The notes: generated by a model not told the origin, from the letters alone. A stretch of DNA of 64,000 nt from Deltaproteobacteria bacterium (GCA_016196825.1 JACPWY010000007.1:2468-66467), one strand, 5' to 3'. Shown: positions 2,562 through 57,205, counted from the stretch's first letter. A program made the numbers and translations.

Positions 2562-2864
2562 TCATTGGCCGGTGAGCGATTTCCAAACTTTGTCGAAGTC
2601 GTCCGCCTCCACCTCAGAATAGATTTCCGGGGCGGCTTCTCCGTCCCGGTAAAGCGCCACGACACAACCGACGTCATTGCAAAATCCGAGGCAGCCGGTG
2701 CGGGTGATCCAAAACTGAGAGCGAATCCCCTCCTGGATAAGCTTGTCTTTCGTTTTGGCGAAAAACTCGTGTCCGCCAACCTTTTTGCAGCAGGATTTTC
2801 CTTCGGGGCGCTCATTGGTGCAGACGTAAAGATGAGCCTCGGGGCGATCCGTGATCGGCTTCAT
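2562..2864 (-). CDS. Thioredoxin-like [2Fe-2S] ferredoxin
   Basis: The cysteine spacing is C-x10-C ... C-x3-C (VCTNERPEGKSCC ... GCLGFCNDVGC), as in NuoE/Fdx4-type ferredoxins. The stop overlaps the start of the neighbouring gene. Confidence 0.6.
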   Translation of the reverse strand: MKPITDRPEAHLYVCTNERPEGKSCCKKVGGHEFFAKTKDKLIQEGIRSQFWITRTGCLGFCNDVGCVVALYRDGEAAPEIYSEVEADDFDKVWKSLTGQ

Positions 2865-5800
2865 ACGCGTTCGACCTTTCCCTTCTGAAAGAGGAAATCA
2901 AGATAAAGGTTGGTGAGCTTTTCCTGGACCGTGTTCTGACGGAGCCGATCGTTTAGGTTCTGGAAATCGACGTGGTCGAGCGGCTGGTCCTGGTTGTAGC
3001 AGGAGAAGATGATCGTCTCTTCACCGGTCTTGGGATCAATGTGTTTTTGCAAGCACTGGGCACAGACCTCCTTCATCATGCATTGCATGGGGGAGTTGAT
3101 TGAACCGATCGCGACGTGGTCGAGCCGGAAATAGGGTTTGAGCACCTCGTGCCGCGCCTTTTGCACCGCCGCCATCATGCGGTCTGAGCCGATGGCGAGA
3201 ATGTGGGTGACCTCATTGAGGGAAAAGGGCGGGCTCTTCTGGAGCTTGCCCTGGCCATACTGTTCCATGGCCTGGACGATGTTGCCGATGAATCCGATGT
3301 CGTTGGGGCGGCGTGGGCTGATGGGGTCCCCCTTGTCGACGCTCCAGATCACCTGATCGGTGTGGGCCTCGATCTCGTTTTGCTTGAAGAGATCGTCCTT
3401 TCTCTTATAGCCGGCGAAATAGACAACTCGATTGTTCTTCTCCTTGAGGGCCTTTGCGATTGAGAGAAGAACGGCGTTGCCGAGGCCGCCGCCGGCCAGA
3501 AGGACCAATTCGTTTTGGGGGATATCGGACGGTGTGCCCGTGGGGCCCATGACGACGACTGGGTCGCCGGGCTTCAGCGTCGCGCAGAGGCGCGAGCTTG
3601 CTCCCATCTCTAGGACGATGACGCTTAGGAGATCGTTGGCTTTGTCCACCCAAGCGCCGGTGAGAGCCATGCCCTCCGTCATGAGCTTGGAGTTGCCGAT
3701 GCCGTGAGATTCGCTCTCGAAGTTTTGAAAACGATAAAACTGACCGGGCTGGAATTTTCGGGCAGCGTAACGTGCCTTCACCACGACCTCGACAATAGTG
3801 GGCGTGAGGCGAATCACCTTGACCACCTTCGGGACCAGAGTCTGGCCGAGGAAGTTGGCTAGGTTGATGAACTTCTCTGAGGGAGAGGCTTCCTTTTCAG
3901 CGTGGGCGATGTCGGATGTGAAAAGTTTGAAGACGTGGCGCGCGCCGTGTTTGGCGGAGGCCATCGCCTTTACCACATTGCCGGCATAGTTCGGGTGGTT
4001 GTCGCCATAGAACGAGACATATTTGCCCTGGTGAGTGTGTGAGAGGAAAAAGGCTTCGCGATCATCTCGGGCGGCGAGGGCGAGCTTCCGAGTGCCATCA
4101 GAGGCGATTTCGATCTTGAACTTTTTGAAGAACGTCTTTTTCTCGTCGAGCTCAAACGAACCCGGGTGTTCCTTTTCATAGATGGTGTTGGGCGAGGTGC
4201 CGGCCGCCACACAGAGTGTGCGGGCATTAAGCAGGAGCTTCTCGCCATTTCCGCGTTGGAATGTGACCTGGGCGAGAGCGCCGTACTTATCCGCGTGGGC
4301 CTCCACTGGGTTGCAGTTTTCGATAAATTGGATTCCTTCCTCGAGTGCCTTAGCCACCTCTTCGTGGTTGAGGCGGTAGGCCGGGGAGTCGATCATTCTC
4401 TTGCGGTAGACAAGCGAAACGCCGCCCCACTCGCGGCACAGCTTGATAAAGTTAGGCGAGCGGCCCTCTTTCTCGGCGAGTCGTCGCTCGTCCCGAATGC
4501 GCCGGCCGTGCTCAAGAAAGAGGTTGAGGTTCTCCTTCTCCTCGACATCGCAGAGGCGTGCGGCGAGGCCTTCACCGTATTCCTTAGTGAGGGTCTCAAA
4601 GCGCTCGAGAATCTTTTCGACCTGGACCGGGTAATAGGCCAAGAGCTCAGTCGCGGTGTCTATTGCTGTGAGTCCGCCGCCAATGACCACCGCCGGAAGG
4701 TGGACCTGAAGATTGGTAAGCGAATTGCGCTTGAATGCGCCGGTCAACTGGAGGCCCATGAGAAAATCGCTCGCCTTGCGGATGCCCCGCATGAGGTTGT
4801 TCTTAATGGAAACGATATTGGGCTTGCCGGCGCCTGTTGCAATGGCGATGTGATCAAATCCTAGCTCCCACGCGTCAGCCAGTTCTAGCGTGCCACCGAA
4901 TCGTACGCCGCCGAAGAACCGCAGGTGTTTTCGCCGGAGAAGCGAAAGGTAGATCACTGAGAGAAAATTCTTGTCCCAGCGGACGGTGATGCCGTACTCG
5001 GACACGCCGCCAAAGCCGGTGAGAATGCGTTCGTCGAGCTCCTTCTTGAGCTCGTTGAAATGTTGAATGGGCTTTGGGTATTCGCGATCAATGCCGGTCA
5101 GGGTCGAGTCTACGGGCTCGAGCTTGAGGCCATCGATCCCAACGACGCCAAAGCCTTCGTTGGCGAGGTAGTGGCTCAGCGTGTAGCCTGCGGGGCCGAG
5201 TCCGACGACGAGGACATTCTTGCCATTAAATGGGAGCGCATACGGCCGTTCGCGGTTGAGCGGATTAAAGCGCGTGAGCAACGAGTAGATCTCAAAGCCA
5301 TAGGGCATCGAGAGGACATCGGTTAGGACTGCAGTTTCATTTTGCGGGATATTGACCGGTTCCTGCTTCTGGAAGATGCAGCCCTTCATGCAATCATTGC
5401 AGATGCGATGGCCGGTGCCCGGGCACATCGGATTGTCGAGCATGATCATGGCGAGCGAGCCGATCACATCGCCTTGACGACGGAGTAGGTGCATCTCGGA
5501 AATTCTTTCATCGAGCGGGCAACCCTCGAGAGCAATGCCGAGAGGATTTTTCTTATAGCCACCGGCCTTTTCGACGAAGCCGGTGGAGCAGGAATCCTTC
5601 TGGCGCGGGTGACAGATGATGCAATAGTCGATCTCTCTGAGCACCTGCTTCGAATTCATGCGGTTGTCGGTGAGCTTGAATCCGTCGCGGCATCGCAGGG
5701 CGTGGTCGGGACCAATCATCTTTTCCGGAATCCTGGGATCGGGCTTCACCACTTCTACGAGGTTTTCGTACTCGATTTTGGCGGCGCGAACGAAGGAGGC

Positions 5801-6460
5801 CCAATTCTTCAGGGAGGCGCGGCGCTCGGGGTCGACCCAGAGCTGGACACACCAGTCTTCAAAAGACTGGAGAGAATTCTTGGCCTTCTCAGTGGGAGAG
5901 GATCCGGCGAGGTGAAGACACAGACTCTGGAGCCTTTGGTTTTCGAGTGTGTCGAGAGGTTTTTGGGCCTTGAGCTTGGTCTCACAATCCAGAATGAAGA
6001 GAACGGTCTGGGCGACGGTGAGCTCTTCATCGGATGGGTGCGGGGTTGAATCGTTCGAGAGGATCTTGCGGACCGTTTTATCGAGCTCCTTGAATTGCTG
6101 AGGCGAGATCGGTTGCTCCTCTAGACGCTTGAAGACGCGGATATTCAGGAAGTCTTTCTTGAAGCGGAAGACGGGGGCGAGGTCGAGGGTGGCCTTTTTG
6201 AGCTTGGCCTCATGGGTGGAGACATTGAACAGTCGCCCGATGAAATCGCCGAGAACCTTGGCGGTCTCGACGAGGACTTCGGACTCTTCGGGGCGAGCGA
6301 CCTTGCCAACGGTGTTGTCGTACTTGGCTCTGAGGCCGGCATTTTGGTCCCCGGCAAACTTCCAGAACTCGGTGTGAAGACCCTTGAGCTTTGAGGGCTC
6401 ATAGAGATCGGAAAACTTGAATTGGCCTATGCCGAGTGGGAAGTCCCTCACGTTGCTCAT
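2861..6460 (-). CDS. Multidomain flavo-iron-sulfur oxidoreductase: unknown about 300-aa N-domain, a GltD/NfnB-like FAD/NAD(P)H module with Cys-rich FeS region, and a PyrK/NfnA-like FAD plus [2Fe-2S] module
   Basis: Supporting motifs:
- Cys clusters CIICHPRQKDSC and CPGTGHRICNDCMKGC.
- Dinucleotide fold VLVVGLGPAGYTLSHYLANEGFGVVGID.
- GGVSEYGI and VVIGGGLTAIDTATE, as in the glutamate-synthase small chain.
- A C-terminal ferredoxin-reductase fold with CMMKEVCAQC...SCYNQD, the PyrK-type 2Fe-2S site. Confidence 0.65.
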   Translation of the reverse strand: MSNVRDFPLGIGQFKFSDLYEPSKLKGLHTEFWKFAGDQNAGLRAKYDNTVGKVARPEESEVLVETAKVLGDFIGRLFNVSTHEAKLKKATLDLAPVFRFKKDFLNIRVFKRLEEQPISPQQFKELDKTVRKILSNDSTPHPSDEELTVAQTVLFILDCETKLKAQKPLDTLENQRLQSLCLHLAGSSPTEKAKNSLQSFEDWCVQLWVDPERRASLKNWASFVRAAKIEYENLVEVVKPDPRIPEKMIGPDHALRCRDGFKLTDNRMNSKQVLREIDYCIICHPRQKDSCSTGFVEKAGGYKKNPLGIALEGCPLDERISEMHLLRRQGDVIGSLAMIMLDNPMCPGTGHRICNDCMKGCIFQKQEPVNIPQNETAVLTDVLSMPYGFEIYSLLTRFNPLNRERPYALPFNGKNVLVVGLGPAGYTLSHYLANEGFGVVGIDGLKLEPVDSTLTGIDREYPKPIQHFNELKKELDERILTGFGGVSEYGITVRWDKNFLSVIYLSLLRRKHLRFFGGVRFGGTLELADAWELGFDHIAIATGAGKPNIVSIKNNLMRGIRKASDFLMGLQLTGAFKRNSLTNLQVHLPAVVIGGGLTAIDTATELLAYYPVQVEKILERFETLTKEYGEGLAARLCDVEEKENLNLFLEHGRRIRDERRLAEKEGRSPNFIKLCREWGGVSLVYRKRMIDSPAYRLNHEEVAKALEEGIQFIENCNPVEAHADKYGALAQVTFQRGNGEKLLLNARTLCVAAGTSPNTIYEKEHPGSFELDEKKTFFKKFKIEIASDGTRKLALAARDDREAFFLSHTHQGKYVSFYGDNHPNYAGNVVKAMASAKHGARHVFKLFTSDIAHAEKEASPSEKFINLANFLGQTLVPKVVKVIRLTPTIVEVVVKARYAARKFQPGQFYRFQNFESESHGIGNSKLMTEGMALTGAWVDKANDLLSVIVLEMGASSRLCATLKPGDPVVVMGPTGTPSDIPQNELVLLAGGGLGNAVLLSIAKALKEKNNRVVYFAGYKRKDDLFKQNEIEAHTDQVIWSVDKGDPISPRRPNDIGFIGNIVQAMEQYGQGKLQKSPPFSLNEVTHILAIGSDRMMAAVQKARHEVLKPYFRLDHVAIGSINSPMQCMMKEVCAQCLQKHIDPKTGEETIIFSCYNQDQPLDHVDFQNLNDRLRQNTVQEKLTNLYLDFLFQKGKVERV

Positions 6461-6794: not shown

Positions 6795-8519
6795 TCACCC
6801 CATGGGCAACGGTACGCCCGCTGGTCGAATGATATTGAGTAGATTTTGAAACCCAGACATGACGGCGCGAATAATCTCTTGTGGCGTTTTCTGCGCGGAG
6901 GCATGGCCCGCGATCTTCGGCAGGAGAGTTTGCGTGGAGACGATACGTCCCGTGGGATCGTAGGCGATGCGAATCGTTCCGACCCCTTTTTCATCGATAA
7001 GAATCGGCTTCCCCTGGTTTCCATAGCGAAAGCTCAGGCGTGAGCCATTGGGCGAGGTCATTTCCGTGATGCGGCCAAAGCGGTCATAGTTGAGGGCGAC
7101 CGATTCGTTTTTTGAATTCGAGGCCTGGATTACATTGCCGCGCTTATCGTACCGGAAGGTGGAGATGATGCCATTTTGACTGAGGCGGGTGATCTTGTTG
7201 AAGCGCGGATCGTATTCGAATTTGAGGCTTTCGGAGGGGCTTGTTTTCTCCATAAGCATTCCGTTCGGAAAGTACTTGTAATCGGTGGTTACGCCGCCGG
7301 CGACGATCTGAAGGGGTTTGCCGCCGCTCAGGCCGTAGATGGTGACGGTGCTCTTGCCATTCTTCTTGGTTTCTAGGCGATAGAGATAGCGGGTGCCACT
7401 GGGCTCGGTGCGGATGGTGTAGTCGTCGATCTGCTCGTCGGTTTTTCCGTCAGCGAATTGGGTCACGTACTTAGTCCAGAAATGGTCACGAGGATCGGTC
7501 GCGCTCCGACCGTAACTATACTGGGTTTCCGCTCCGTCCTTTTCGCGGCTGAATGTGATGAGACCGTTCTCATCATATTTCATTTCGCGGGTGACCTTCT
7601 TTGCGTCGGTGGATTCGGTGAGGTAGTCGATTCCGGTGATGAGGTGAGGGTGCCGAGGGCTTTCGTATCGATAGGAAAAGGCTTGGTTCGTGGAATCGGT
7701 GACCTTGGTGAGATTTCCTTGCTGGTCGTACGTATAGGCCGTTCGGAGATTCCGATTGTCGACGGCCTCGATGATACGGTTCTTCCGCCAAGTGAAGCGG
7801 ATCGATACGCTCCTGTCCTCGCTCTGGAGCTGAACTATTTGGCTCTTCTCCTGAGTAGAATAGGTGAACAGCAACGTGAAGCCGTTCTTATCGGTCTGGC
7901 GGGCGATCCGACCGTTTTTGTCGTAGGCCTGGGAGAGCCCGTCGTATTTGCGGATCCAATAGTTATTTCTGTATTCCATGGTTTGCAGGCCGAATTCCGA
8001 CGAGATCAGGACCTCACCGCGGGGAAGCGGGCTTGTGATGTGAAACTGAGCGGCTGCGTCGGCACGGTATTTTGGCTCATTCGCGAGGCGAACCTCCATC
8101 GAGGGTGGAAGCGAAAGCTTGTTCACCTCGGCGTCGGACAGTTTTCGGCCGAGGCGGTCTTGGAAAAAGGCGCGCTTGAGATCGTGCATGAACCGCGCTT
8201 TGACCGCGGGACTCTCTTTCGCGCTGGCGAAGGTCAGTGTGTTTCCGGAGAATCCGTCGCGCAGAAGAATCTTACGATCGCCGGTGAGCGTGATGACCGA
8301 TTCCATAAGGCTCGTCCAGCCCCAGCCGAAGGCGCCGTTCCACCCATTGGTTTCAAAGACAGCGGTGATGGAATTGTAGGAGCGGGCGAGCTCGACCGGC
8401 AGCACGGGACCGGGAATGCTGAAATCCACATAGAGTAAATTCATGCTGCCGTTGAGTCGGTTGACGTTAAGCGCCAGCAGACTTGTCGACGCAATGAATA
8501 AGATGAGCGCGGTTTTCAT
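6795..8519 (-). CDS. Secreted YD-repeat (RHS-repeat) protein without recognisable C-terminal toxin
   Basis: Signal peptide MKTALILFIASTSLLA. Repeated YD motifs include YDKNGRIARQTDKNGFTLLFTY, YTYDQQGNLTKV, FRYDKRGNVIQ, YDRFGRITEM and YDPTGRIVST. Confidence 0.75.
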   Translation of the reverse strand: MKTALILFIASTSLLALNVNRLNGSMNLLYVDFSIPGPVLPVELARSYNSITAVFETNGWNGAFGWGWTSLMESVITLTGDRKILLRDGFSGNTLTFASAKESPAVKARFMHDLKRAFFQDRLGRKLSDAEVNKLSLPPSMEVRLANEPKYRADAAAQFHITSPLPRGEVLISSEFGLQTMEYRNNYWIRKYDGLSQAYDKNGRIARQTDKNGFTLLFTYSTQEKSQIVQLQSEDRSVSIRFTWRKNRIIEAVDNRNLRTAYTYDQQGNLTKVTDSTNQAFSYRYESPRHPHLITGIDYLTESTDAKKVTREMKYDENGLITFSREKDGAETQYSYGRSATDPRDHFWTKYVTQFADGKTDEQIDDYTIRTEPSGTRYLYRLETKKNGKSTVTIYGLSGGKPLQIVAGGVTTDYKYFPNGMLMEKTSPSESLKFEYDPRFNKITRLSQNGIISTFRYDKRGNVIQASNSKNESVALNYDRFGRITEMTSPNGSRLSFRYGNQGKPILIDEKGVGTIRIAYDPTGRIVSTQTLLPKIAGHASAQKTPQEIIRAVMSGFQNLLNIIRPAGVPLPMG

Positions 8520-8555: not shown

Positions 8556-9653
8556 ATGAAAGGAACGCTGATGAAGCGACTTGTCACGATCCTCTCTCTT
8601 GCCATTATGGCTGGTTTTTTCACTGAGTTAGCCGCGAGAATCGGGGTGACGATTTCACTGGGTTGGAGCGCTGTGTCAACGAAGTTGATGCGCCACCCCG
8701 AGGAACTTTGGTTTTCCTATTATCCGGAATTGCGTCGCATCTTGGCGGCTCCTGGAGAGGCCGCGCCGCGGGTGCTCTTGGTTGGGGCGTCTGTGATCGC
8801 GGGTGGCCGGGGCTATGGCTCAGTGGTTGATCGCCTTCGGGAGGAGGGACGGCGAGCGGGAGTGGAGATTTCCATCGCGAATGCTGGGGTCCCAGCTCAC
8901 ACATCGGTGGATGCGCTGTTCAAATATCGACTGTTGGGGGAGCGGCGTTTTGATCTCGTCATCTGGTCGGAAGGGTTCAATGAAGTGCGGGCGAATAATT
9001 GCCCCGATGGGGATTTTCGGAGCGATTATTCCCACTACAGTTGGTATCGACGATTGCGGGTCCTTGAGCGGCACCCGGAGTTGAAGTTTATAGCCCTGCC
9101 ATATGTGGTGGACAGCCTTGTGGAGGAGGCGCGTCACCTTCTGAGCGGGCACCGGGATCTGCCTCGGCATGCGCCGGTTGCGGAGTATCATCGATATGGG
9201 GAGAAGGTGAAGACGACTCTTTCGCTCGAGAAAAACCTGGAGGCGTTCTTGGGGGTTGCCCGACAGCGCGGGGAGGCGGTCGTGGTGGTGACCCAGCCGT
9301 TTTTTATTCCGCCGGACTATTCGCTGGAGAGGTTTCAAGGGCGGGCACTCGATTACAACAGCCATGTCTTGCCGGTGGAGCTCTGGGGTTCGGTCGAAGG
9401 GGTGCGAGCAGGGGCCGAGGCGCACAACGAAGCGATCCGGCGGGTGGCCGCCCGGGCGCGGGAGCGGGGCCAGGACGTGAAACTGATCGACTTGGCCACT
9501 CTTCTCACGGGGGGCCGAAAGTATTTCAATGATGTCTGCCACCTCACCGACGAGGGATCGCGTGTTTTTGCTCGGCAGATTCTCAATGCATGGGAGCGAG
9601 CGCGCCTTGCACGCGAAAGATCATCTCCCGTTCAAAAAGCCCCTCATTCCTGA
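8556..9653 (+). CDS. SGNH/GDSL-family hydrolase (esterase/acylhydrolase)
   Basis: N-terminal signal/TM segment. A block-I-like LLVGASVI, and a C-terminal DVCHLTDEG that matches the SGNH catalytic DxxH block. The 3' end overlaps the convergent gene by about 70 bp. Confidence 0.6.
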   Translation: MKGTLMKRLVTILSLAIMAGFFTELAARIGVTISLGWSAVSTKLMRHPEELWFSYYPELRRILAAPGEAAPRVLLVGASVIAGGRGYGSVVDRLREEGRRAGVEISIANAGVPAHTSVDALFKYRLLGERRFDLVIWSEGFNEVRANNCPDGDFRSDYSHYSWYRRLRVLERHPELKFIALPYVVDSLVEEARHLLSGHRDLPRHAPVAEYHRYGEKVKTTLSLEKNLEAFLGVARQRGEAVVVVTQPFFIPPDYSLERFQGRALDYNSHVLPVELWGSVEGVRAGAEAHNEAIRRVAARARERGQDVKLIDLATLLTGGRKYFNDVCHLTDEGSRVFARQILNAWERARLARERSSPVQKAPHS

Positions 9654-11058
9654 GAAAGCCCTTTTCTAACAACTTCGGAAAACCGCCCTCCAGGGTTCTG
9701 GGTATGGGAACAATTACGAACTCTATCTTTTGTTCCTGGAGGTAACGAACAAGGTCTGTGGCGCCCACACACGGAAGATATTTCCACCGCCCTCGGGCCT
9801 GGACTGCGCTGACGAAGTTTTCAGTCGTGGCGACGCGGTGGTTGGGGCCGTGGCGACGGTAGAGCTCTTCTCCGGCTGACGTGAGCGGGCGCGGACTTTT
9901 GAGGTGGCCCATTGCAAGTGTGGTCGCAAGAATGGCGATGTTGCCGAGCGCGCAGAGCGCGACGACTCCTTTTCTGAAAGAAGCGGTGGGCGAGTCGAGG
10001 GCGCGGCCGAGGCAAACGTAATAGAAGGGAAGGGCCGGGAGATAGTAGCGGGGGACATAGGTTGAGAGAACCATTCCCATCGTGGTGATAACCGCCCAGG
10101 AAAAGAGGGTGGAGATCCCCTTTTCTCGTCGACAGCGCAAGAGTCCGATGCCGGCCACCGCCAGAACGGGTGGCGAGACCGCCTTGAGCCAGCCGAAGAG
10201 ATAACGGCCTAGCGTGAGCCACCGGAATTTGAAGACGAGCGCCTGCGGGAGCGCGGGATCGGGCGGGAGCGGCCCTTCGAGTTGGTTGAGATCACCGAGG
10301 ACCGTGTGGTGGCCGTCGTAGAGATGGCACCAGCGATCGGGTGCCTGGTGGAGCCATTCGAGGCCGAGGTAGAAATGGTTGAGCGCGAAGGACGGCGAGG
10401 GGGCGAGAACGCCGATGCGCGAGCGAAAGTAGAGGCTGAGAATGAGGATGGTGAGAAGGGTGGGAAAGGTGGTGGCGATGCGGGTTTTCGGCCTGGCGGC
10501 AATCCACGGAAGCCAGCGGGAGAGAATGTAGAGTGCAGCGATGAGCCCTGGGAGTCGGCACAGGATGAGGAGCGGGAGCAGAAAGGCGTCAAGGAGGGAA
10601 GGAGATCCCTTTTCGAGATTGCGCATGACGACGAGGGTAGCGATGAATAGATAGAGTGTGTCGGCCCCGAGGGTGGTGGCCTGCTGAACGACGAGAGGGT
10701 CGACGGCCAAAAGGAGTGCGACGGCGGTGGCGGTCGTGACGGACGAGGTTCGTTTTATGTGATGGAAGAGGAGCGCGATCGTGCCGAGGGCGCTCATCAT
10801 GTTGACGAGGAGAATGGCTTGAGTGGGGCTGAATCCGAGAACGGTCGGAAGGGCTGCGAACCAGCTGATAAGCGGCATCCAGAGCGACCCGATAGCAGCG
10901 GCTATCTCACCGGTTGCGACGCGCTGGGTGGCCTGTGCATAGAAGACGCTGTCGAAGGTGAGACTCCATAGGTGACTCCCTCCGAATAGGCGCAGTGCGC
11001 AGGCAAATGTGAAGACGCCGAGCGGTAGAAGCAGGACGGGGATTCTCGATGACGGCAT
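9583..11058 (-). CDS. Polytopic membrane protein, probable GT-C-fold glycosyltransferase (ArnT/PMT-like)
   Basis: At least 10 predicted TM helices. The first loop carries ...LWSLTFDSVFYAQAT..., which resembles the D-x-x-(F/Y)-A loop of ArnT/PMT. The call is weak. Confidence 0.45.
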   Translation of the reverse strand: MPSSRIPVLLLPLGVFTFACALRLFGGSHLWSLTFDSVFYAQATQRVATGEIAAAIGSLWMPLISWFAALPTVLGFSPTQAILLVNMMSALGTIALLFHHIKRTSSVTTATAVALLLAVDPLVVQQATTLGADTLYLFIATLVVMRNLEKGSPSLLDAFLLPLLILCRLPGLIAALYILSRWLPWIAARPKTRIATTFPTLLTILILSLYFRSRIGVLAPSPSFALNHFYLGLEWLHQAPDRWCHLYDGHHTVLGDLNQLEGPLPPDPALPQALVFKFRWLTLGRYLFGWLKAVSPPVLAVAGIGLLRCRREKGISTLFSWAVITTMGMVLSTYVPRYYLPALPFYYVCLGRALDSPTASFRKGVVALCALGNIAILATTLAMGHLKSPRPLTSAGEELYRRHGPNHRVATTENFVSAVQARGRWKYLPCVGATDLVRYLQEQKIEFVIVPIPRTLEGGFPKLLEKGFLRNEGLFEREMIFRVQGALAPMH

Positions 11059-11076
11059 TCGAGTCGGATCTTACCA

Positions 11077-13200
11077 TTGATGATCATGGAATCGTTGGGC
11101 CGGATCGGATGGGGGTTGGCGGCCACCGCGCTTGTTATTTGCGCAGTAGTGCCGTTTGTTTCCCAGAGTTCGGATATGGTGGGCTATCCGCTTTGGGCTA
11201 GCTTCAACATTAATCGACTGTTCTTCACCGCGTATGCGGCAATGCTTCTGCCGCCGATTTTCTTCGTATGTTTCGGGGGAAGGTGCGAGGGGGCGGGCCG
11301 ACTCTTTCAGGGGAGTGGCGGCGGACGGTTGTCCCTGGGTTGGATCTGGGTGGGGGGAGTGATCACTGCAGTGGTGCACGCATCGCTGCCGCTCGATCCA
11401 CTCTCGATCCATCGCGACTTTCACCATCCGGGTGAGATGCTGGTGCCAGCGTTGACATTGTGGCAGGGGGGCGTTCCCTGGCGCGATGTGATGCTCCACC
11501 AGGGGCTGCTAGCGGGCCCGCTGCGGGCTATTGTAGGCTGGTTTTTCGTCGAAAAATCCTACTGGGGGGCGGTCGCGGGCGAAAGGTTGTTTCTGATTCC
11601 GCTCGCGATGGTGTTGGCCTATGCCTGGCGGGTGAGGCTCTTTCGGGGGAGTCCGGGATTCGTGGTCTTTGCGACCTTCATTCTGCCGATTCTTTGGCCG
11701 CAGCTGTTCGGGCGGCGAGTGGCCTATTTTGAAAGAATGATCCTCTATCCGCTCTATCTGTTGGTGGTGATGGAGGCATTCGTGAAGGGGCGATGGGTTT
11801 GGATGGGTACGGCGGGTGTCTTGATGGCATCGATGGTGTTTCTCACACCGGAGATGGCCATTCTGGCGTTGGCTTCGCTCGTGATTCTCTCCGCGCGGTG
11901 GTTTTTCGGAAAACGCGGCGAGGTATTGCCGTGGATCTGTGGATTCCTACTGCTGGTGATGGGAGTGATGGGGTGGCTCGCGAGGCATGGGGCTATGGCC
12001 GCTTTTGGGGACTATTGGCACTACTTTCTATCCGGTTATCGGTTCATCTACGGAATGCCGCTGCACCCAAAAGGGATTCCCCTCTTTTGGTTTCTGGTTG
12101 TCGTGCCGGGCGCGATCTTTTTCTTATCGTTGGTGCATCTGATTCACTGCTGGCGAAAAAGGGTTGAGCCGACGCCCGTTGCCTGGGGGCTGGCCTTGGT
12201 GGCGGTTTTCTCGGTGCTCTATTTTCAGAAGTTTTTGTGTGAGGCCGACGACCACATCTATGCGGTAGTCTTTGTGACACTGCCGTATCTGGAGTGGTTA
12301 ATTTTTGAAGTGGTCAGGCGATTGCCGGTGAGAGTTTCAGTTCGGTCGCTGAGGTTGGGAATGGTTGGGTTGGCGGCTGCCTTTCTTGTCTGGGCCCATC
12401 CGGAACGAATCGATCGGTTTGGGAAGAGGTTTCAAAATCACGGAGGGCGGGAGCTTGTCGCGTCGCGAGAGGAGCAGGCTGTTATCGACGATTTTCGGCG
12501 CCTCTTTGGGCGTGTTTTGGCGCCCGATGAGCCCGTGCTGGATCTCACCAATTCGAGCCTGCTTTTTCACTCCATTTTGGGTCGTCCGTTTGTGGGGAGG
12601 TTTTTTCAGACAATTACACTGGCTTCGCCAGCGGGGCAGCGAGATCTGATCTCCGCCGTGGAACGGGTGAAGCCCAAGATCGTGATTTTTGACCGCGCCT
12701 TTGGATTTGATGTTTCACACCCGGTGCCGATTCCTGTGAGGTTTCACCATGTGTCGAGCTGGCTTCTGAGGAATGGTTACTTGCCGTGGGTGAATCTGGA
12801 TGGGTACGCGCTTTTGCGACGGGCAGACTGGATGCCTCGAGGGATTTCAACGAAAGATTTCGTGGGGCTCACCGAGTCCGCGCCACCTCGGGAATGTGAT
12901 TGGGGGGCGGTGCCGAGTGCCTGGCTTGGGCGGGCGGCGCCAGAGGGTGATTATCTGGAGATAGATTTGGAGGGGGCGGTGTCCGATCACTGGATCGTGC
13001 GGGCGACAGGGGAGAAAAATCCTGTCCGAGGGATCCATTTCCGCACGTTGGATGGCCCAGGGGGTGTGTACCGAGTGCCTTTGTCGAACTGTCTTCAGTG
13101 GGCGCTATTGCGGGGGCAGCCTGTGGAGGTGAAGCACGACCGACCGCAGAACTTAAGATCGCTCAAGTTTGTATCTCAAATCCCACGCGAACTGTCTTAA
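11077..13200 (+). CDS. Large integral membrane protein with about 300-aa C-terminal soluble domain, unknown function (possibly GT-C-like)
   Basis: 707 aa. About 12 hydrophobic helices followed by a soluble C-domain. No known catalytic motif recognised. Confidence 0.45.
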   Translation: MMIMESLGRIGWGLAATALVICAVVPFVSQSSDMVGYPLWASFNINRLFFTAYAAMLLPPIFFVCFGGRCEGAGRLFQGSGGGRLSLGWIWVGGVITAVVHASLPLDPLSIHRDFHHPGEMLVPALTLWQGGVPWRDVMLHQGLLAGPLRAIVGWFFVEKSYWGAVAGERLFLIPLAMVLAYAWRVRLFRGSPGFVVFATFILPILWPQLFGRRVAYFERMILYPLYLLVVMEAFVKGRWVWMGTAGVLMASMVFLTPEMAILALASLVILSARWFFGKRGEVLPWICGFLLLVMGVMGWLARHGAMAAFGDYWHYFLSGYRFIYGMPLHPKGIPLFWFLVVVPGAIFFLSLVHLIHCWRKRVEPTPVAWGLALVAVFSVLYFQKFLCEADDHIYAVVFVTLPYLEWLIFEVVRRLPVRVSVRSLRLGMVGLAAAFLVWAHPERIDRFGKRFQNHGGRELVASREEQAVIDDFRRLFGRVLAPDEPVLDLTNSSLLFHSILGRPFVGRFFQTITLASPAGQRDLISAVERVKPKIVIFDRAFGFDVSHPVPIPVRFHHVSSWLLRNGYLPWVNLDGYALLRRADWMPRGISTKDFVGLTESAPPRECDWGAVPSAWLGRAAPEGDYLEIDLEGAVSDHWIVRATGEKNPVRGIHFRTLDGPGGVYRVPLSNCLQWALLRGQPVEVKHDRPQNLRSLKFVSQIPRELS

Positions 13201-13246
13201 TTGGCGGGCTCGCCTAGGGAAAGAGGCCCGGGTATAGTCAGCGCCG

Positions 13247-14605
13247 ATGGCGACGAGGATTCAGACATCGCAGGTTGTGGTTTGGATCCTTTTGCTCGCC
13301 GTGGTGGCTGTGGGCTTAAGGAACTTTGAGCGGGGGATGAGCAGCGATGCCCCCCTGTATGCGAGCATCGCGCGTAATATTGTCCAGAGTCACAACTGGT
13401 TGGATCTTGAAAGTGGGATCGGTGATTTCCATCCTTACGTTGAGCACCCGCATCTGGGGTATTGGGTGTTGGCGGCGGTATTCAGTGTGCTGCCGGCTGA
13501 GGATTGGTCGGCGCGGATTCCGGGTTGCTTGTTTTACGTTTTGACGCAGGGGCTCCTCTTCTTTTTCATCCGCAAACGGTTTTCGGAAAAGGCAGCTGTG
13601 TGGACGGTGCTTCTTCTCTGGAGCTGGTCGCGGTACAGCAATTTTTTCTCCAACGTCTATCTGGATCCGGGCTGTGTCTTTTTTGGTTTGTTGGCTGTGG
13701 TGATGATGAATTTTCGGAGACCGGCTCTGTCGGGGCTGGCGCTAGCGTTTTCGATTCTTTACAAAGGCTTGGCCGGAATGGGGTTTGTGCCTGTTTTGGT
13801 GTGGGTGTGTGCGACGCGAGTGAAGGAGAAGAGGGTCAGGGCGGCGGCTAAATTTCTTTTGGCGTTCGCGGCGCCGCATTTTGTTTACTGGCTGGTGTTG
13901 CAACGGAGCCACACGCCGAACTTTTTGGAGCTCTACTGGGAGCGCCAAATGACTCACCGGTTTCTGGAACTCGTGGTCATCACAAAGCTCATCTCTTGGC
14001 GAGGGTGGGGTGAGCTGATGCAGGACACCTACTACTTGCTCCTGCTAGTTCCCTTGGCCTTTTTTCTCTCGAAGAATCGTCGGGGTCTCATCGTGCCGGG
14101 GATTCTTTTGGTTGTTTACTGTCTGCTCTTTGCCAAGAGTAACTTGTCGGGTGAACAGTATTGGTTGGCAGTGATGCCATGGGTGGCGTGGATATTGGCG
14201 GACGGACTCTTCGCGCGGATTCCGTGGGAGCCCGAGCGTGTGCGAAAGGTGACCGGTGCTTTCGCCGTGATCGCGATTTTCTGGGTGCAATACATTCCCT
14301 TCAACATGCACCGCCTTCCGGTGCCGGAGGAGGTGAAGGAAATTCAACGCCGAAGCGGCGGGCCGCTCGTGCTGATGGTGCCTCGCGGAGACATCGAGTT
14401 TCTCCACGCCTCTCGATTGGCCTGGTACGCCAACGTTAAGGTGCTTTACCACCGTGATAAGGAAAAGCCACTGGTCGTCGTCCCAAGCGGCGGTTTGACA
14501 CTGCACGCGACGGAATTTGGGCCAGCGGAGCTCAAGGCCAATGGCCTTTGCCGAGGCCCTCTCTTCAAATACTCCGAGCTCTGGGTTTCTTGCCAGGCCG
14601 GATAA
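13247..14605 (+). CDS. Glycosyltransferase family 39/83-like (ArnT/PMT-type, polyprenyl-phosphate-sugar dependent)
   Basis: ...SSDAPLYASIARNIVQSHNWLDLESGIGDFHPYVEHPHLGYWVLAAVF... parallels E. coli ArnT ...[42 protein letters not shown].... Multi-TM. Confidence 0.65.
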   Translation: MATRIQTSQVVVWILLLAVVAVGLRNFERGMSSDAPLYASIARNIVQSHNWLDLESGIGDFHPYVEHPHLGYWVLAAVFSVLPAEDWSARIPGCLFYVLTQGLLFFFIRKRFSEKAAVWTVLLLWSWSRYSNFFSNVYLDPGCVFFGLLAVVMMNFRRPALSGLALAFSILYKGLAGMGFVPVLVWVCATRVKEKRVRAAAKFLLAFAAPHFVYWLVLQRSHTPNFLELYWERQMTHRFLELVVITKLISWRGWGELMQDTYYLLLLVPLAFFLSKNRRGLIVPGILLVVYCLLFAKSNLSGEQYWLAVMPWVAWILADGLFARIPWEPERVRKVTGAFAVIAIFWVQYIPFNMHRLPVPEEVKEIQRRSGGPLVLMVPRGDIEFLHASRLAWYANVKVLYHRDKEKPLVVVPSGGLTLHATEFGPAELKANGLCRGPLFKYSELWVSCQAG

Positions 14606-14811
14606 GGCATCCCGGCGCGGGCGCCGGGAACCATTTCGAGGCCGACAGCTTTGCGTATCAACGATGTCATTGGCTTCATCGACGCCGACGCGTAGCTTCT
14701 TGACCGGACAGTTAAGGCGCTTTTTTTCTATTTATCGATGAGATATCAGCACATTTCACGTTGACATAGAGTCGCTACTTGCTAAATCTATCGACGATAG
14801 AGAGGTGGTTA

Positions 14812-15756
14812 ATGATTATTTCTCCTGTGATTCTCTCCCTGCATGAGAAGACCCTCGGTGTAGCCAAAGCCTTCAAACGGTCTGAAAGACAGCTCATCGA
14901 TTTGTTAAGTGAGATGGACAGAACTCGGGGATTTGTCGCTATGGGTTATTCCTCGATGAGATCCTATTGTGTGGGCCCCCTGCGCCTCAGCGACTTTCAG
15001 GCCTATTCACTCGTGGGCATTGCGCGAAAAAGCAGAGAATGTCCTAAGATGCTTGAGCTCATTGATCAGGGCTCATTGTCGGTATCTCATGCCACTTTGC
15101 TACTCAAGGCGATTAGTAAGAGTAACCAAGAAGAACTCCTGGGCGTGGCTACTCAGCTCACTAAACGCGGCCTGGAGTTTGAACTCAAGAAGCGTTTTCC
15201 CAGCAAAGGGCGCGAGATCACACGCCCCATCTGTAGCAGCCATTCAGAAGTCACACTTTCTGTGCCAAATGAACTCCTCGCCGCTCTAAAAAATTTGCAA
15301 AATATTTACTCTTCCAAGAGGAAGCGCTGTCTAACGCTGGCCGAAACGCTTCAGATCATGACCGAGGAGTGTACGACTAAACATGATCCCATTTCCCGGG
15401 CAATGAGAAGTGCCGCCAGAAAGAAAAAGACCCAGATATCGTCGCCCGAGAGGCCAGTCGCCACCATCGTGCCACCGATTCATAGGGTGGCGCAGTACAA
15501 GCGCAACCCTATCCACTGGCGACTTCGCTATGAAGTCGTTCTCAGAGACAAGCACCAGTGCACGCACCTTCAACCGGATGACACTCGATGCGAAGAGCGG
15601 CGCTTCCTCCACATTCACCACATCATACCAGTGCACCTGGGTGGGCAGAATGTCCTAGAGAATCTCACCACGCTTTGTTCCAATCATCATAGTTACCTCC
15701 ACTGGGAGGATCGGTGGCGGGTGAAGAGCAGAACTGGGTCGGTGGTTACTTTTTAG
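14812..15756 (+). CDS. HNH endonuclease with N-terminal DUF222-like domain (13E12-repeat-type)
   Basis: C-terminal HNH motif ...HIHHIIPVHLGGQNVLENLTTLCSNHHSYLH. The N-terminal part (GYSSMRSYCVGPLRLSDFQAYSLVGIARKSRECPKMLELIDQGSLSVSHATLLLKAI) matches DUF222 architecture. The ORF is open from 14779. Confidence 0.7.
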   Translation: MIISPVILSLHEKTLGVAKAFKRSERQLIDLLSEMDRTRGFVAMGYSSMRSYCVGPLRLSDFQAYSLVGIARKSRECPKMLELIDQGSLSVSHATLLLKAISKSNQEELLGVATQLTKRGLEFELKKRFPSKGREITRPICSSHSEVTLSVPNELLAALKNLQNIYSSKRKRCLTLAETLQIMTEECTTKHDPISRAMRSAARKKKTQISSPERPVATIVPPIHRVAQYKRNPIHWRLRYEVVLRDKHQCTHLQPDDTRCEERRFLHIHHIIPVHLGGQNVLENLTTLCSNHHSYLHWEDRWRVKSRTGSVVTF

Positions 15757-16149: not shown

Positions 16150-17304
16150 CTACGGTGGGGCGATCCCACCAGTGAAGAGTGTTCCGATTTTGCACTGAGG
16201 GCACAGGTCTGGATCGAGCCCTGTGAATTGTCGAAGTAGCGCCTTCCAATCGAGCGGGAGTGTCGTTTGGAGGACTTCTATGATCCCCTGAATCGCCTTT
16301 ACGATTCTGATGTTCTCCTTTTTGAGACGACTTCCGAGTAATCCGAAGTGTCGGATTCGGACATAGCCTTTGGGAAGGATATGGAGCAGGAATCGTCGTA
16401 AAAACACCCGGACATCGAGCACTAGGATCTTCTTCTCTTTCGGATTTTCTCGGTCTCTCACCTTGAAATGGATCTGATTCCCTTCCAGTTTGACGAGCCG
16501 GTAGTTTGAGATGGCTATTCGGTGGGTATATTGCCCCAAATAGTTGATGACCTGCTTGGGACCGTTGAAGGGCTCTTTCGCGTACACCACCCAATCCTTC
16601 GATGCGGCAGTGACGAGGATCTCCTTGAAACTGGGAAAGTGTTTGAGGTGTTCTATCTTCCCCATGAATTTAAGTTTACCGTCGTCAAATGCTCGCTCTA
16701 GGGCCTCGAGCATCTTCCCCCTAAAGACCGTTGAGAGCACTCTGACCGACAAAAAGAAGTCCTTCTTGCAGTGCACCCACGCTGTCTTCTTCTTATTGAG
16801 TCCGCCGGCTGGTACTATGAAATGGATATGGGGGTGATCGACAAGGTTCTGAGCCCAGGTATGGAGCACCCCGATAAATCCTATTTCAGCTCCCAGTTGT
16901 TTCGGGTTTTGGGCGACGTCTTTTAGACTCTCCGACGCAGCCCGAAAAAGAATGTCGTACCCGACATCCTTATTCCGAAGTATGAGCGGATTTAGCTCCG
17001 AGGGAATCGTAAAGACGACGTGGAAATATTGGCAGGGCAGTAGATCTTTTGTCCGCTTATCTATCCACCGAAGCTGGCTCAAGAATTGGCACTTTGGGCA
17101 GTGTCTGTTTCGGCATGAGTTGTAGGAGTTCTTCTGGTACTCGCACTCATCGCACCGGACGCTGTGGCCGCCAAGCTGACTCGTCCGACAAGTTGTGATG
17201 TCACGAATCACCTTCTGATGAGAGTAAGGAAGTTCTCCCAGCTCGTGTCCGAAACGGTGAAAAAGATCCGCGATTTCGATTTCCGGTTTGTAGAAGGTCT
17301 TCAT
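16150..17304 (-). CDS. tnpA: IS91-family (Y2, HUH) transposase
   Basis: N-terminal Zn-binding region CDECEYQKNSYNSCRNRHCPKCQ. An HUH motif HPHIHFIVP. C-terminal Tyr motifs YLGQYTHRIAISNYRL. 384 aa. Confidence 0.85.
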   Translation of the reverse strand: MKTFYKPEIEIADLFHRFGHELGELPYSHQKVIRDITTCRTSQLGGHSVRCDECEYQKNSYNSCRNRHCPKCQFLSQLRWIDKRTKDLLPCQYFHVVFTIPSELNPLILRNKDVGYDILFRAASESLKDVAQNPKQLGAEIGFIGVLHTWAQNLVDHPHIHFIVPAGGLNKKKTAWVHCKKDFFLSVRVLSTVFRGKMLEALERAFDDGKLKFMGKIEHLKHFPSFKEILVTAASKDWVVYAKEPFNGPKQVINYLGQYTHRIAISNYRLVKLEGNQIHFKVRDRENPKEKKILVLDVRVFLRRFLLHILPKGYVRIRHFGLLGSRLKKENIRIVKAIQGIIEVLQTTLPLDWKALLRQFTGLDPDLCPQCKIGTLFTGGIAPP

Positions 17305-18199
17305 TTCGCCACCCCCTGCAGCTCGACTCCCTTGAAATACTCATCAAGAGGGCTTTTGACCGGGATGGTTTTGATGTTTGAGATCTGGAGGTAGCGAATC
17401 GTCGAGCGGATATCCGAATGTCCAAGAAGGAATTGGACGTGGAAGAGGTGTGTCTTTCGCTCGATTAAATGGACGGCAAACGAGTGACGGAGTAGGTGCG
17501 GATAGATTTTTTTTTAATACCCGCAAGTTGCCCGGCTTTCCGCAAAATATATCCAATCGCCGTGTGGGAGAATTTTTTCTTGAGTTCCCCACTATGGCTA
17601 TTTTTCGTCGGCATGAAGAGCCAATCTGATTTAACGGGGTTGTGCACCCGGCACAGCCGCCAATAGGTCCTAAGACACTTTAAAGTGATCGGCGACAAGA
17701 GGGCCTGGCGGTCCTTCCCGCCTTTTCCATCTCGGATATGGATGCACATCCTTTTGCTGTCGATATCCTGGATCTTTAAATTTCTAAGCTCCCTGTGTCT
17801 GATCCCCGATGAGTAGAGCGTCATGATGACAGCCTTCCACATAACCTTGTGGACAGAATCGATCATCGACGCCACTTCTTCCTCACTAAGAACGGCCGGC
17901 ATTTTTCTTGAAGTTTTGACTCGAGGAAGAGCATCCGTGTACCAGTGCCGGCCCAAGACGTACCGGTAAAAGAATCGAATCCCCGATAACTCCTTATTGA
18001 TCGAATTGGGGGCCAGCTCCTTCTCCTTTAACAGATGGAGCTGGTACGCCTTGATATCTTCCACGGCGAGTTTCACCGGAGGTCTTTTGTGAAACTCGAC
18101 GAATTTCTCCATCGAGTCCAGGTATTGAGACTTCGTTCCTTCTTTCAACCCACGCACTTCCATTTCGGCGATCATCCGATCGCGCAGACGCGTAGCCAT
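17302..18199 (-). pseudogene. Tyrosine recombinase/integrase associated with IS91-family elements, interrupted by a frameshift at a T9 homopolymer (about 17505-17513)
   Basis: The annotated ORF 17465-18199 ends ...KKKSIRTYSVTRLPSI*. Moving the frame by deleting two bases of the nine-base run (a single extra base restores it equally) gives ...HLLRHSFAVHLIERKTHLFHVQFLLGHSDIRSTIRYLQISN..., the canonical integrase C-terminus (R, HxxR, Y). That frame ends at a TGA overlapping the transposase ATG (ATGA at 17301-17304). Confidence 0.7.
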
Positions 18200-24149: not shown

Positions 24150-25760
24150 TCAAAGGTTTTGCGCAAGCTGTGTATCTTCTTCCGGCAGTCGGCCGACGGA
24201 AATTCTGTGCGATTCTGTCTGAACCACCGTATCAAGGTCCCGAGTGATCATTTCATCAAAGGGATCCGGAGCGGCGGTGGTGAACCCTTCCGAACCGTCG
24301 AAGGAGGAATCGATCCGGACGGCGATATCGTGCGGGCTTTTGGAGGCCGAGTATTCCCTGGTGAAGAGTGATCGGGTGCCGGGGTTGCGGAGCATCCAGA
24401 CCGAATGCGTGGCCGGTTTCATCTTGGTCATGAGATAGCCGCCGGGAAAACAGTCGTAAAAAATGATGCGCCCTTGATCGTTCTCAAGGGAGCGGATCTC
24501 GTCGAGGAGACCGTCGTAATGGGCCTTGCGTTTGGCCGTTGTCCAAATTCCCTTGTAGGGTCCTCGGTCAAGACGAGCTGTGAGGAGCGGCAAGGGTCGA
24601 TCGCGATAGGAACTCTGGTAAAGCGCAACGACAAGCGCGAAGATGGCGGCGGCTGCTGGCAACCAGGAGAGACGGCAAGTTGAGCGAGTCAAATATGCGA
24701 CGGTGAGAACCGCGAGCGGAAGGAGCCCCAGTGGGGCGCTGTAGAGTGTCTGAGAACTCGTCCAAGCGGTCGTGAGTCCGGCGACTAGGGATGCCACGGC
24801 AATTGCCATCCACCAGCGATTTTTCCAGGGGAGAAAAAGAGGCGCCAAGATAGCGAACCAGAAGATCTCCTGGCCTGACCGCATGAAGGAGTGGCTTGGA
24901 GTTTTAAAGATGAGAAGAATCGGAATGAGGGCCCACACCGTGGGTGACCAACGCAGGCCAGCCCAGAAGATCGAAAGAATGGCGGTGGTGTACGAGGGCG
25001 CCCACCACTCTCCGGTGATCTGCCGGGCGATCACGACCCACTTGTGCCACCCGCCTAACTTATCTTGGTCGCTTGAAGTGTATTGAATAATTTCGATGAG
25101 GCGTTGGGTACTGGTTCCGATTAGGGAGGGCAGCATTGCGAAAACAATGAGAGAAGCCCCGAAAAGCGCCTGCTTCGTGCGAACTGTCGGGTTCAAAAAA
25201 ACATATACAGCAATCGCGATCGGAAGAGTGGGGTAGGCGATCGCGGCTGTTGCGAGAAAGCTGCCCGCCGCGAACTGGGGCCATCGTCTTTCATCAGTTC
25301 CGAGGAAAAGGCCGGCTGCCAAGCAATGCATGCTGATGCTGTTGTAGAAAAAGTTGGGGATATTGTAGTGAACGTAGGCCAGCGAGACTAATGAAGCCAT
25401 GAGGGCTAGGGAATCCTCGACCCGCCTTCTCAACGAGATATAAATAGCGAGAGTGGTGCTGAGCGAAAAAAGAAAAAAACAAAGTCGCGAGAAAAGAACA
25501 ATTCCTTCGGTGCCGGAATTGAAATGCACGAAGCCCCGCACGATCGGAAGCGTAAGAAGGGCCGCCGATTGGATCGACATGTATTCATCCTTGAATGGCG
25601 TGTCTCCGAGTGCAAAACGATAGGACATGGCGAGATGCAGGGCCTCATCAGTGAAATCGCACGAGAAGAATTGGCGGATAAGGACCAAGCCTATGAAGAC
25701 GAGCGCGACGATGACGACCACCCTGGGCCGTTTCAACGAGGGGACAACGCTGAGTTCCAT
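24150..25760 (-). CDS. Polytopic membrane protein, GT-C-fold glycosyltransferase-like (ArnT/PMT-type motif)
   Basis: The first loop ...FSCDFTDEALHLAMSYRFALGD... parallels ArnT ...QPDETRYAEISREMLASGD.... Multi-TM plus a C-terminal soluble domain. Confidence 0.5.
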   Translation of the reverse strand: MELSVVPSLKRPRVVVIVALVFIGLVLIRQFFSCDFTDEALHLAMSYRFALGDTPFKDEYMSIQSAALLTLPIVRGFVHFNSGTEGIVLFSRLCFFLFSLSTTLAIYISLRRRVEDSLALMASLVSLAYVHYNIPNFFYNSISMHCLAAGLFLGTDERRWPQFAAGSFLATAAIAYPTLPIAIAVYVFLNPTVRTKQALFGASLIVFAMLPSLIGTSTQRLIEIIQYTSSDQDKLGGWHKWVVIARQITGEWWAPSYTTAILSIFWAGLRWSPTVWALIPILLIFKTPSHSFMRSGQEIFWFAILAPLFLPWKNRWWMAIAVASLVAGLTTAWTSSQTLYSAPLGLLPLAVLTVAYLTRSTCRLSWLPAAAAIFALVVALYQSSYRDRPLPLLTARLDRGPYKGIWTTAKRKAHYDGLLDEIRSLENDQGRIIFYDCFPGGYLMTKMKPATHSVWMLRNPGTRSLFTREYSASKSPHDIAVRIDSSFDGSEGFTTAAPDPFDEMITRDLDTVVQTESHRISVGRLPEEDTQLAQNL

Positions 25761-42450: not shown

Positions 42451-42633
42451 ATGATTCTCGTGTTAGCTTTGGCGGCGATTTTGGGGTGGGCGAACCCTTC
42501 TCCGACCCCAACTCCGACCGAAGATTTCGAGGAATACAAGGCCTACTGGAAGAGTTTCAAGGTACACATCGAAGCTCCGGTCGACGAAAAACCCTTTGAG
42601 GAATTTAAGCAGTCTTTTCTCAGGGGCATTTAA
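42451..42633 (+). CDS. Possible small secreted protein (about 60 aa)
   Basis: MILVLALAAILGWANPSPTPTPTE... is signal-like. It is short and overlaps the GH1 stop by 4 bp. Low confidence. Confidence 0.25.
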   Translation: MILVLALAAILGWANPSPTPTPTEDFEEYKAYWKSFKVHIEAPVDEKPFEEFKQSFLRGI

Positions 42634-57165: not shown

Positions 57166-57205
57166 GGGTGATGGATCCGTCAGCTCCGTTGCCCGATCAG
57201 AAGGA

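Follow-up and report, generated by a model that had tools for sequence, protein, structure and literature searches.

The window analysed here is a stretch of 64,000 nucleotides from an uncultured, Bdellovibrio-like Deltaproteobacteria bacterium (GCA_016196825.1 JACPWY010000007.1:2468-66467), in which three long open reading frames (ORFs) take up the interval 9583-14605. Their products, hereafter referred to as A, B and C, are each 100% identical to proteins deposited for this metagenome-assembled genome (MAG; locus tags HYR96_01485, HYR96_01490), A and B carrying the label “hypothetical protein” in GenBank and C that of “glycosyltransferase family 39 protein”. The B start codon selected by NCBI, at position 11086, yields a protein of 704 residues. 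A Kyte-Doolittle scan identified 10, 12 and 9 hydrophobic segments in the 491-, 707- and 452-residue proteins, with soluble C-terminal tails of 107, 268 and 98 residues, respectively, in agreement with the first-pass annotation of this DNA, which had described three consecutive polytopic membrane proteins of 450-700 residues. The same annotation presented the genes as a tandem array, a description that does not hold: A is transcribed divergently from B and C, with the start codons of A and B 18-27 bp apart, and BLASTP detected no similarity among A, B, C and D, a fourth membrane protein encoded in the window (every E value >1). We therefore rejected tandem duplication as the origin of A, B and C. 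The 3' end of A overlaps convergently, by 71 bp (9583-9653), with that of a gene encoding an SGNH hydrolase, and scans for promoters and terminators returned no more sites than in shuffled sequence. GT-C glycosyltransferase gene clusters are common in bacterial envelope loci, and we regard this as a fairly ordinary envelope-glycosylation locus, without a duplicated array, in which the certainty of the GT-C assignment differs from protein to protein.

Table 1. Coordinates and assignments of the features of the window considered in the text.
Feature	Position	Strand	Description
A (A_491)	9583-11058	-	491 residues; probable GT-C enzyme with an ArnT-like N-terminal module
B (B_707)	11077-13200	+	707 residues; GT-C-fold membrane protein of an unannotated family
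C (C_452)	13247-14605	+	452 residues; ArnT/PMT_2-type GT-C glycosyltransferase
SGNH/GDSL hydrolase	8556-9653	+	Lipase_GDSL_2 match above cutoff; membrane-anchored
YD/RHS-repeat protein	6795-8519	-	Short, secreted; RHS_repeat and N-terminal DUF6531
D (D_536)	24150-25760	-	536-residue polytopic membrane protein; GT-C candidate via loop motif only
GT2-family glycosyltransferase	52216-52950	+	Glycos_transf_2
Glutamate synthase beta subunit/2-polyprenylphenol hydroxylase fusion	2861-6460	-	1199 residues
HNH endonuclease	14779-15756		
IS91/Y2-type transposase	16150-17304		
Tyrosine integrase	17465-18199		
GT21-type glycosyltransferase, then GH1 glycosidase	42630-45127	-	Ceramide glucosyltransferase-like GT21
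NTP_transf_3/APH-type kinase fusion, with HAD-like hydrolase	55558-57742	-	Fusion of 535 residues
Polytopic protein	59582-61282	-	566 residues

The ArnT/PMT_2-type protein C

GT-C enzymes transfer a sugar from a polyprenyl-phosphate-linked donor to an envelope acceptor on the periplasmic side of the inner membrane, for which they employ an acidic residue located where the first long periplasmic loop begins. Protein C matched the Pfam PMT_2 model (PF13231) with a score of 40.8 bits (E = 3.3e-10), above the gathering cutoff of 26.1. Single-sequence searches of the PDB with A, B and C each returned nothing useful; the profile of the C family (53 homologues) matched ArnT residues 55-384 in the structure determined for the Cupriavidus metallidurans enzyme (5EZM; E = 1.6e-17). 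In this profile alignment, residues D34, D140, K173 and Y305 of C, all invariant in the 53 homologues, align onto ArnT D55, D158, K203 and Y345. The ArnT first-loop signature attributed to this protein in the first-pass annotation is present (S-D34-A-P-L-Y-A-S-I-A-R ... W ... H-L-G-Y-W73), W73 being likewise invariant in the homologues, and the catalytic aspartate expected in this loop corresponds to D34. Two cysteines of the tail, C435 and C449, are nearly invariant. From its sequence, C can be firmly predicted to be a GT-C enzyme of the ArnT/PMT_2 type. Beyond C, the PMT_2 model did not extend to the other proteins described as ArnT/PMT-like: A scored 21.8 bits (E = 2.4e-4), below the cutoff, and B and D gave no match at E ≤ 1.

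PMT_2 is a broad model that includes ArnT-like and uncharacterized bacterial GT-C enzymes, and a match to it therefore gives no acceptor identity. Against the ArnT equivalog model (NCBIfam NF009784), C scored only 12 bits (E = 0.059; cutoff 567), and A, B and D had no match to this model; judging by these scores, none of the four proteins is an ArnT orthologue. In comparison with ArnT (PmrK; 5EZM/5F15, GT83, GT-C), C has the profile match with the catalytic positions, A shares the same N-terminal module via C, and B matches in fold, whereas C, which has a far smaller C-terminal domain, falls short of the length of ArnT by about 100 residues, A and B have no direct sequence match to ArnT, and no arnBCADEF-type genes lie nearby. 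Similarly, C resembles the PMT/PMT_2 enzymes of CAZy family GT39, the family under which it was deposited, in exceeding the model threshold that A fails to reach, but it lacks both a MIR domain and a match to PMT (PF02366).

With respect to the acceptor, C, and perhaps A, might be a lipid A or core transferase of the ArnT/FlmK type, adding a neutral sugar, such as mannose, from an undecaprenyl-phosphate-sugar. The alignment of C with ArnT extends across the catalytic region, and many relatives of C come from Bdellovibrionales-like MAGs. C homologues stand alone in other, varied genomic contexts (two contexts examined), in one of which (L008) the gene directly adjoins a PAP2 phosphatase gene; sugar capping would first require that a lipid A phosphate be removed. 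There is also a precedent, as Francisella FlmK is an ArnT-like GT-C enzyme, the type to which C would belong, and uses undecaprenyl-phosphate sugars from the DPM1-like FlmF1 and FlmF2, this system decorating lipid A with mannose and galactosamine (PMC2233673); the lipid A of Bdellovibrio is phosphate-free and mannose-decorated (cited in PMC2233673). However, C scores far below the cutoff of the ArnT equivalog, the PAP2 neighbour was found in only one of the two contexts, and a scan of a subset of the window ORFs revealed no housekeeping lipopolysaccharide or lipid A genes. We consider a lipid A or core role of this kind to be a reasonable alternative, but an unlikely one.

Proteins B, A and D

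Protein B had no match in Pfam, NCBIfam or the PDB, either as a single sequence or as a 52-sequence profile, and Pfam scans of nine members of its family identified no Pfam domain. An exhaustive HMMER search recovered 369 representatives, mostly of 900-1100 residues and all unnamed; the family comprises about 370 clusters at 50% identity, with a typical length of about 1000 residues. The AlphaFold2 model of B was nonetheless confident (predicted local distance difference test [pLDDT] 87.4, predicted template-modelling score [pTM] 0.89), and Foldseek ranks 1-28 against the PDB were occupied exclusively by GT-C enzymes, from seven or more families: STT3A/STT3 (STT3A, E = 7.8e-6), ArnT (E = 1.4e-4), AftA, DPY19, EmbA/B/C, PglB, ALG9, ALG3 and AftB. 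The comparison of AlphaFold models with known GT-C structures, put forward in the first-pass annotation, thus gave a consistent answer for B, and the predicted structure strongly supports its assignment to the GT-C enzymes at the fold level. From residue 88 onwards, the model consists of a transmembrane helix, two short loop helices, six transmembrane helices, a loop, four further transmembrane helices and a soluble domain. This order fits the GT-C core, which consists of seven transmembrane helices plus a variable module. One published description of GT-C enzymes gives a domain of 7-13 transmembrane segments and a small extracytoplasmic domain after the first of them (PMC11127046).

By Foldseek, the B model matched STT3/PglB best (GT66; E = 7.8e-6 to 1e-2, TM-scores 0.34-0.42), and B shares with these enzymes the plan of a multi-helix core followed by a C-terminal extracytoplasmic domain. 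It differs from these enzymes in showing no sequence similarity to them (10-14% identity in the structural alignments) and in having two extra helices before the core, or about six in its long-form relatives. The motif WWDYG is of the STT3 type, and it was not seen in the B sequence or in the conserved columns of the family.

The family has its own loop signature, D-x-F-H-[ED]-G-E ... G131-x-x-P-W-R-D in B numbering, which in B reads D114-x-F-H-x-G-E120 ... P134-W-R-D137 ... W163. Position 114 is Asp in 41 of the 52 members and Glu in three, and position 120 is Glu in 45 of the 52; R220, E259, K385, D391 and H393 are also conserved, and conservation around the loops predicted by the model extends to acidic, basic and aromatic side chains. 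D114 and E120 lie 49 and 43 residues, respectively, before the invariant W163; in ArnT, D55 precedes the Trp by 50 residues. The segment from D114 to D137 is a likely candidate for the active-site loop. The first-pass annotation had mentioned loops in A and B related to that of ArnT; this is confirmed for A (F-D36-S-V-F-Y-A), and in B the conserved acidic loop follows the third helix rather than the first. With the core of B alone, hhalign gave a probability of only 5% for a relationship with the C family, so the link between B and C is one of fold only. The 268-residue C-terminal domain of B carries a conserved cysteine pair and, as for the pair in the tail of C, this conservation suggests an extracytoplasmic location; the domain is probably periplasmic and acceptor-binding.

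In one respect B is unusual within its family. Between B residues 62 and 95, each of the other 51 aligned members carries a further 120-240 residues or so, equivalent to about four helices, so that B has three rather than about seven helices before the acidic loop, and it departs from the family at four near-invariant positions (H142Q, D147G, R389E and D548H). Lacking about 150-190 residues relative to 51 of the 52 aligned members, B could be seen as a degenerate, non-catalytic protein that has kept the GT-C scaffold and lost its activity, serving at most as a partner or scaffold. We find this improbable, as the ORF is intact, the model is highly confident, and D114, E120, P134-W-R-D137, W163, K385, D391 and H393 are all retained. 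Moreover, two other members of the family (P0020 and P0151) are short forms with the same three-helix N-terminus, and the closest homologue of B, itself a long form, is non-consensus at three of the four substituted positions, with the same residue as B only at position 389. The short N-terminus was rejected as proof of decay because natural short forms exist; given these forms and the departures of the closest homologue, B is treated here as a natural short variant.

Protein A belongs to a very rare family, with only two other members found among 5.8 billion clusters; a genome scan with the A profile returned only the contig already found, and a separate metagenome scan returned none. The family alignments consequently contain three sequences for A, and two for D. 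No match to the PDB was obtained with the A-family profile, but comparison of the A and C families by hhalign gave a probability of 89% (E = 2.1e-6, 154 columns), with A residues D36, D133 and R168 aligned with C residues D34, D140 and K173, and the loop containing D36 is invariant in the three family members. The AlphaFold2 alignment was not padded with C-family sequences, because padding would force the answer, and the model obtained from three sequences was poor (pLDDT 51.6, pTM 0.36). Its first 14 Foldseek matches were GT-C or GT-C-like proteins (STT3A, E = 9.4e-4), although these matches were weak, with TM-scores of 0.17-0.32. On the basis of sequence, A is probably a GT-C enzyme with an ArnT-like N-terminal module.

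Protein D, the fourth such protein reported in the first-pass annotation, is indeed polytopic, with nine hydrophobic segments and a tail of 155 residues. It had no match in Pfam, NCBIfam or the PDB, searches of the PDB and of metagenomes with the D profile were empty, and it is weakly homologous (27-30% identity, E ~1e-10) to a 596-residue protein of the contig described in the next section (L001). After its first helix, D reads D35-F-T-D38-E39 ... G52-x-x-P55-F56, which resembles the loop of the B family and that of a PMT_2-like protein encoded near a B-family gene in another genome (L004, 2460-3953, + strand). This latter protein has 497 residues and nine hydrophobic segments, matches PMT_2 below the threshold (E = 7e-4), and reads Y-D-E-E...G-G-V-P-Y-R-D-F after its first helix. 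By hhalign, D showed no significant relationship to the A, B or C family or to the 497-residue protein (probability of 1% with the B family). The motif common to B, D and the 497-residue protein may mark a GT-C subgroup, and D can be called a GT-C candidate by virtue of its loop motif only.

A and D, or one of them, might instead be polytopic proteins of another function, resembling GT-C enzymes in the first loop only. The sub-threshold Pfam score and unreliable model of A would be consistent with this, as would the lack of a significant family match for D. For A, however, the hhalign probability, the alignment of three key positions and the retrieval of GT-C structures first, even by a poor model, argue otherwise, and the D..DE...G..PF motif of D matches the loop motifs of the B family and of the PMT_2-like L004 protein. 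Such another function is, in our judgement, doubtful.

Gene neighbourhood and its conservation

The SGNH hydrolase and YD-repeat neighbours named in the first-pass annotation were both recognized by Pfam models. The SGNH protein, which has an N-terminal hydrophobic segment, matched Lipase_GDSL_2 with 36.6 bits (cutoff 32.9), and its catalytic blocks (G-A-S79, G-F-N142 and D326-x-x-H329) are intact and shared with the homologue encoded on L001, a contig of 19.5 kb from an uncultured Pseudobdellovibrionaceae MAG (L005 is the same contig). The YD protein (574 residues) matched RHS_repeat (E = 1.8e-25), DUF6531 (E = 1.5e-10) and YD_repeat_2x (E = 6.8e-23), with no match to a C-terminal domain and a score of 61.8 against a cutoff of 2000 for the RHS_core model; from these matches, it is a short YD-repeat protein and no full Rhs toxin.

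The order GltS-like, YD, (D-like), SGNH, A and B is found on L001 as in the window, with the D homologue lying within the block on L001. The encoded proteins are 57% (YD, 587 residues), 27-30% (D homologue), 43% (SGNH), 41% (A) and 40% (B, 971 residues, long form) identical to those of the window, and the divergent starts of A and B are conserved, together with the convergent overlap of A and SGNH (107 bp, L001 9861-9967). The absence of a counterpart of C from L001 suggests that the conserved unit is YD-(D)-SGNH-A-B, with C an adjacent extra; C would then be a separate enzyme that only happens to adjoin the conserved block. Downstream from C, the window contains genes for an HNH endonuclease, an IS91/Y2-type transposase and a tyrosine integrase, and G+C content dips to 0.50-0.52 at 14-20 kb, versus 0.55-0.60 around it. 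The segment 14779-18199 is probably a mobile-element insertion, separating C from D. The 1199-residue protein, which resembles a fusion of a glutamate synthase beta subunit and a 2-polyprenylphenol hydroxylase and is PRK06567-like (E = 1e-180, yet below the model cutoff), is syntenic with the cluster in L001, a caution that the shared gene order may in part stem from descent rather than function.

B-family genes have quite different neighbours elsewhere. Those in L003 and L004 adjoin NTP-transferase, HAD, GHMP kinase, transaldolase, methyltransferase and GT2 genes, none of which was found beside those in L009-L011. The regions concerned, in two genomes unrelated to each other, are L003 12898-16686 and L004 8627-9912; NTP-transferase and HAD-phosphatase genes are present in both, and GHMP-kinase, transaldolase and methyltransferase genes also in L003. 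The resemblance of the L003/L004 neighbours to a heptose-type nucleotide-sugar pathway suggests a possible glycan context for the B family.

These contexts bear on the question of whether A, B and C have anything in common other than their location. They might be functionally independent neighbours, each in a pathway of its own (lipid A or core for C, a polysaccharide for B), with no common machinery. Their lack of mutual sequence similarity, the isolated C homologues, the mobile-element block abutting C and the variable surroundings of the B family would all fit such independence. The conservation in L001 of the A-B-SGNH-YD order and of the unusual gene overlaps, at about 40-57% identity, speaks against it, and we judge it to be possible, if somewhat unlikely. 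The “elaborate machinery” proposed in the first-pass annotation can be retained to the extent that A, B, SGNH, YD and a D homologue are conserved together in one MAG; it does not extend to C, the homologues of which stand alone, and the distant GT2 gene and the lack of a nearby flippase also count against it.

Donor supply and interpretation of the locus

The GT2-family protein of the window, proposed in the first-pass annotation as a DPM1-like source of the polyprenyl-phosphate sugar, matched Glycos_transf_2 (E = 1.6e-13) and had no PDB relative by phmmer. Its best NCBIfam match was PpgS (35.7 bits, cutoff 370), and its scores for polyprenyl-phosphate sugar synthases were 10-fold below the cutoffs. 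DPM1, GtrB and ArnC carry D-A-D at the DxD position, at which this protein reads H-G-D96-G-Q (G-D-G). The gene belongs to an unrelated-looking operon, along with GatZ-like and cupin genes, at a distance of 37.6 kb from C. A GT2 protein is present, but its link with the GT-C enzymes is not supported, and it was rejected as a demonstrated partner because of its distance, atypical DxD motif, sub-cutoff scores and lack of a PDB relative. In three-component systems (GtrA/GtrB/Gtr*, and ORF15/ORF13 or ORF14/ORF12 of C. youngae, GT136), a polyprenyl-phosphate sugar synthase and a flippase accompany the GT-C enzyme (PMC11127046); the window contains several GT-C components, but no synthase or flippase was found beside these genes.

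The window contains several further genes of note. The 535-residue fusion of an NTP_transf_3 nucleotidyltransferase and an APH-type kinase, beside a HAD-like hydrolase gene, could be a sugar-1-phosphate activation module, and lies further from the GT-C cluster than from the GT2 operon. The GT21-type glycosyltransferase and GH1 glycosidase look like an unrelated glycolipid-type pair. Finally, the unannotated 566-residue protein, which the first-pass annotation did not name, has at least 10 hydrophobic segments and, at a threshold as loose as E 0.1, no Pfam match; it may be another GT-C-like protein or a polymerase/ligase-like one.

The best explanation of the locus as a whole, which we favour with moderate confidence, would be that A, B and C are three evolutionarily distinct, periplasm-facing GT-C transferases using polyprenyl-phosphate sugars. 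A lineage-specific unit decorating one envelope glycan or glycoconjugate would probably be formed by the YD-(D)-SGNH-A-B block, with the GT-C enzymes adding sugars and the SGNH enzyme handling O-acyl groups, whereas C would work separately, as a compact ArnT-like enzyme with its catalytic and phosphate-binding positions intact. The analysis establishes the ORFs, the membership of C in its family, the fold predicted for B and the synteny; in this explanation, we infer catalysis, donor use, transfer to the acceptor and the functional coupling of the block.

A number of observations weigh against this explanation. In addition to the missing helices and substitutions of B and the poor model of A described above, the Foldseek TM-scores for B were only 0.35-0.43, and the equivalence of B D114 and ArnT D55 depends on spacing and a weak hhalign match (43%, falling to the value given above for the core). 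The A homologue P0004 has no PMT_2 match. There is no GT2 or small flippase gene between 2.8 and 27 kb of the window. Synteny was observed in one other genome only and includes the unrelated GltS-like gene, and it may therefore reflect shared ancestry rather than function. In five other genomes, B-family genes lack SGNH, YD and other block neighbours.

A bolder proposal would be that the B family is a new GT-C sequence family working, in this Bdellovibrio-like lineage, with A, D-type and SGNH proteins as a dedicated multi-GT-C system, which would glycosylate and (de-)O-acylate the co-conserved, secreted YD protein or a lineage-specific surface glycan; we regard this as quite unlikely.

The annotation of C was already known, and there is no sign of a new mechanism in the locus; what is mildly new is the B family, a sizeable group that domain databases do not cover although its predicted structure is of the GT-C type and it has a distinctive loop motif. 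If the assignments hold, three very divergent GT-C enzymes would be added to the catalogue, and “hypothetical” membrane proteins, numbering in the hundreds, would be annotated at the level of fold and given an active-site motif open to testing. Envelope glycosylation, for example as neutral, mannose-capped lipid A, is thought to be important for the unusual outer membrane of Bdellovibrio-like predators, and C-type enzymes would be reasonable candidates for the mannose-capping chemistry in these organisms.

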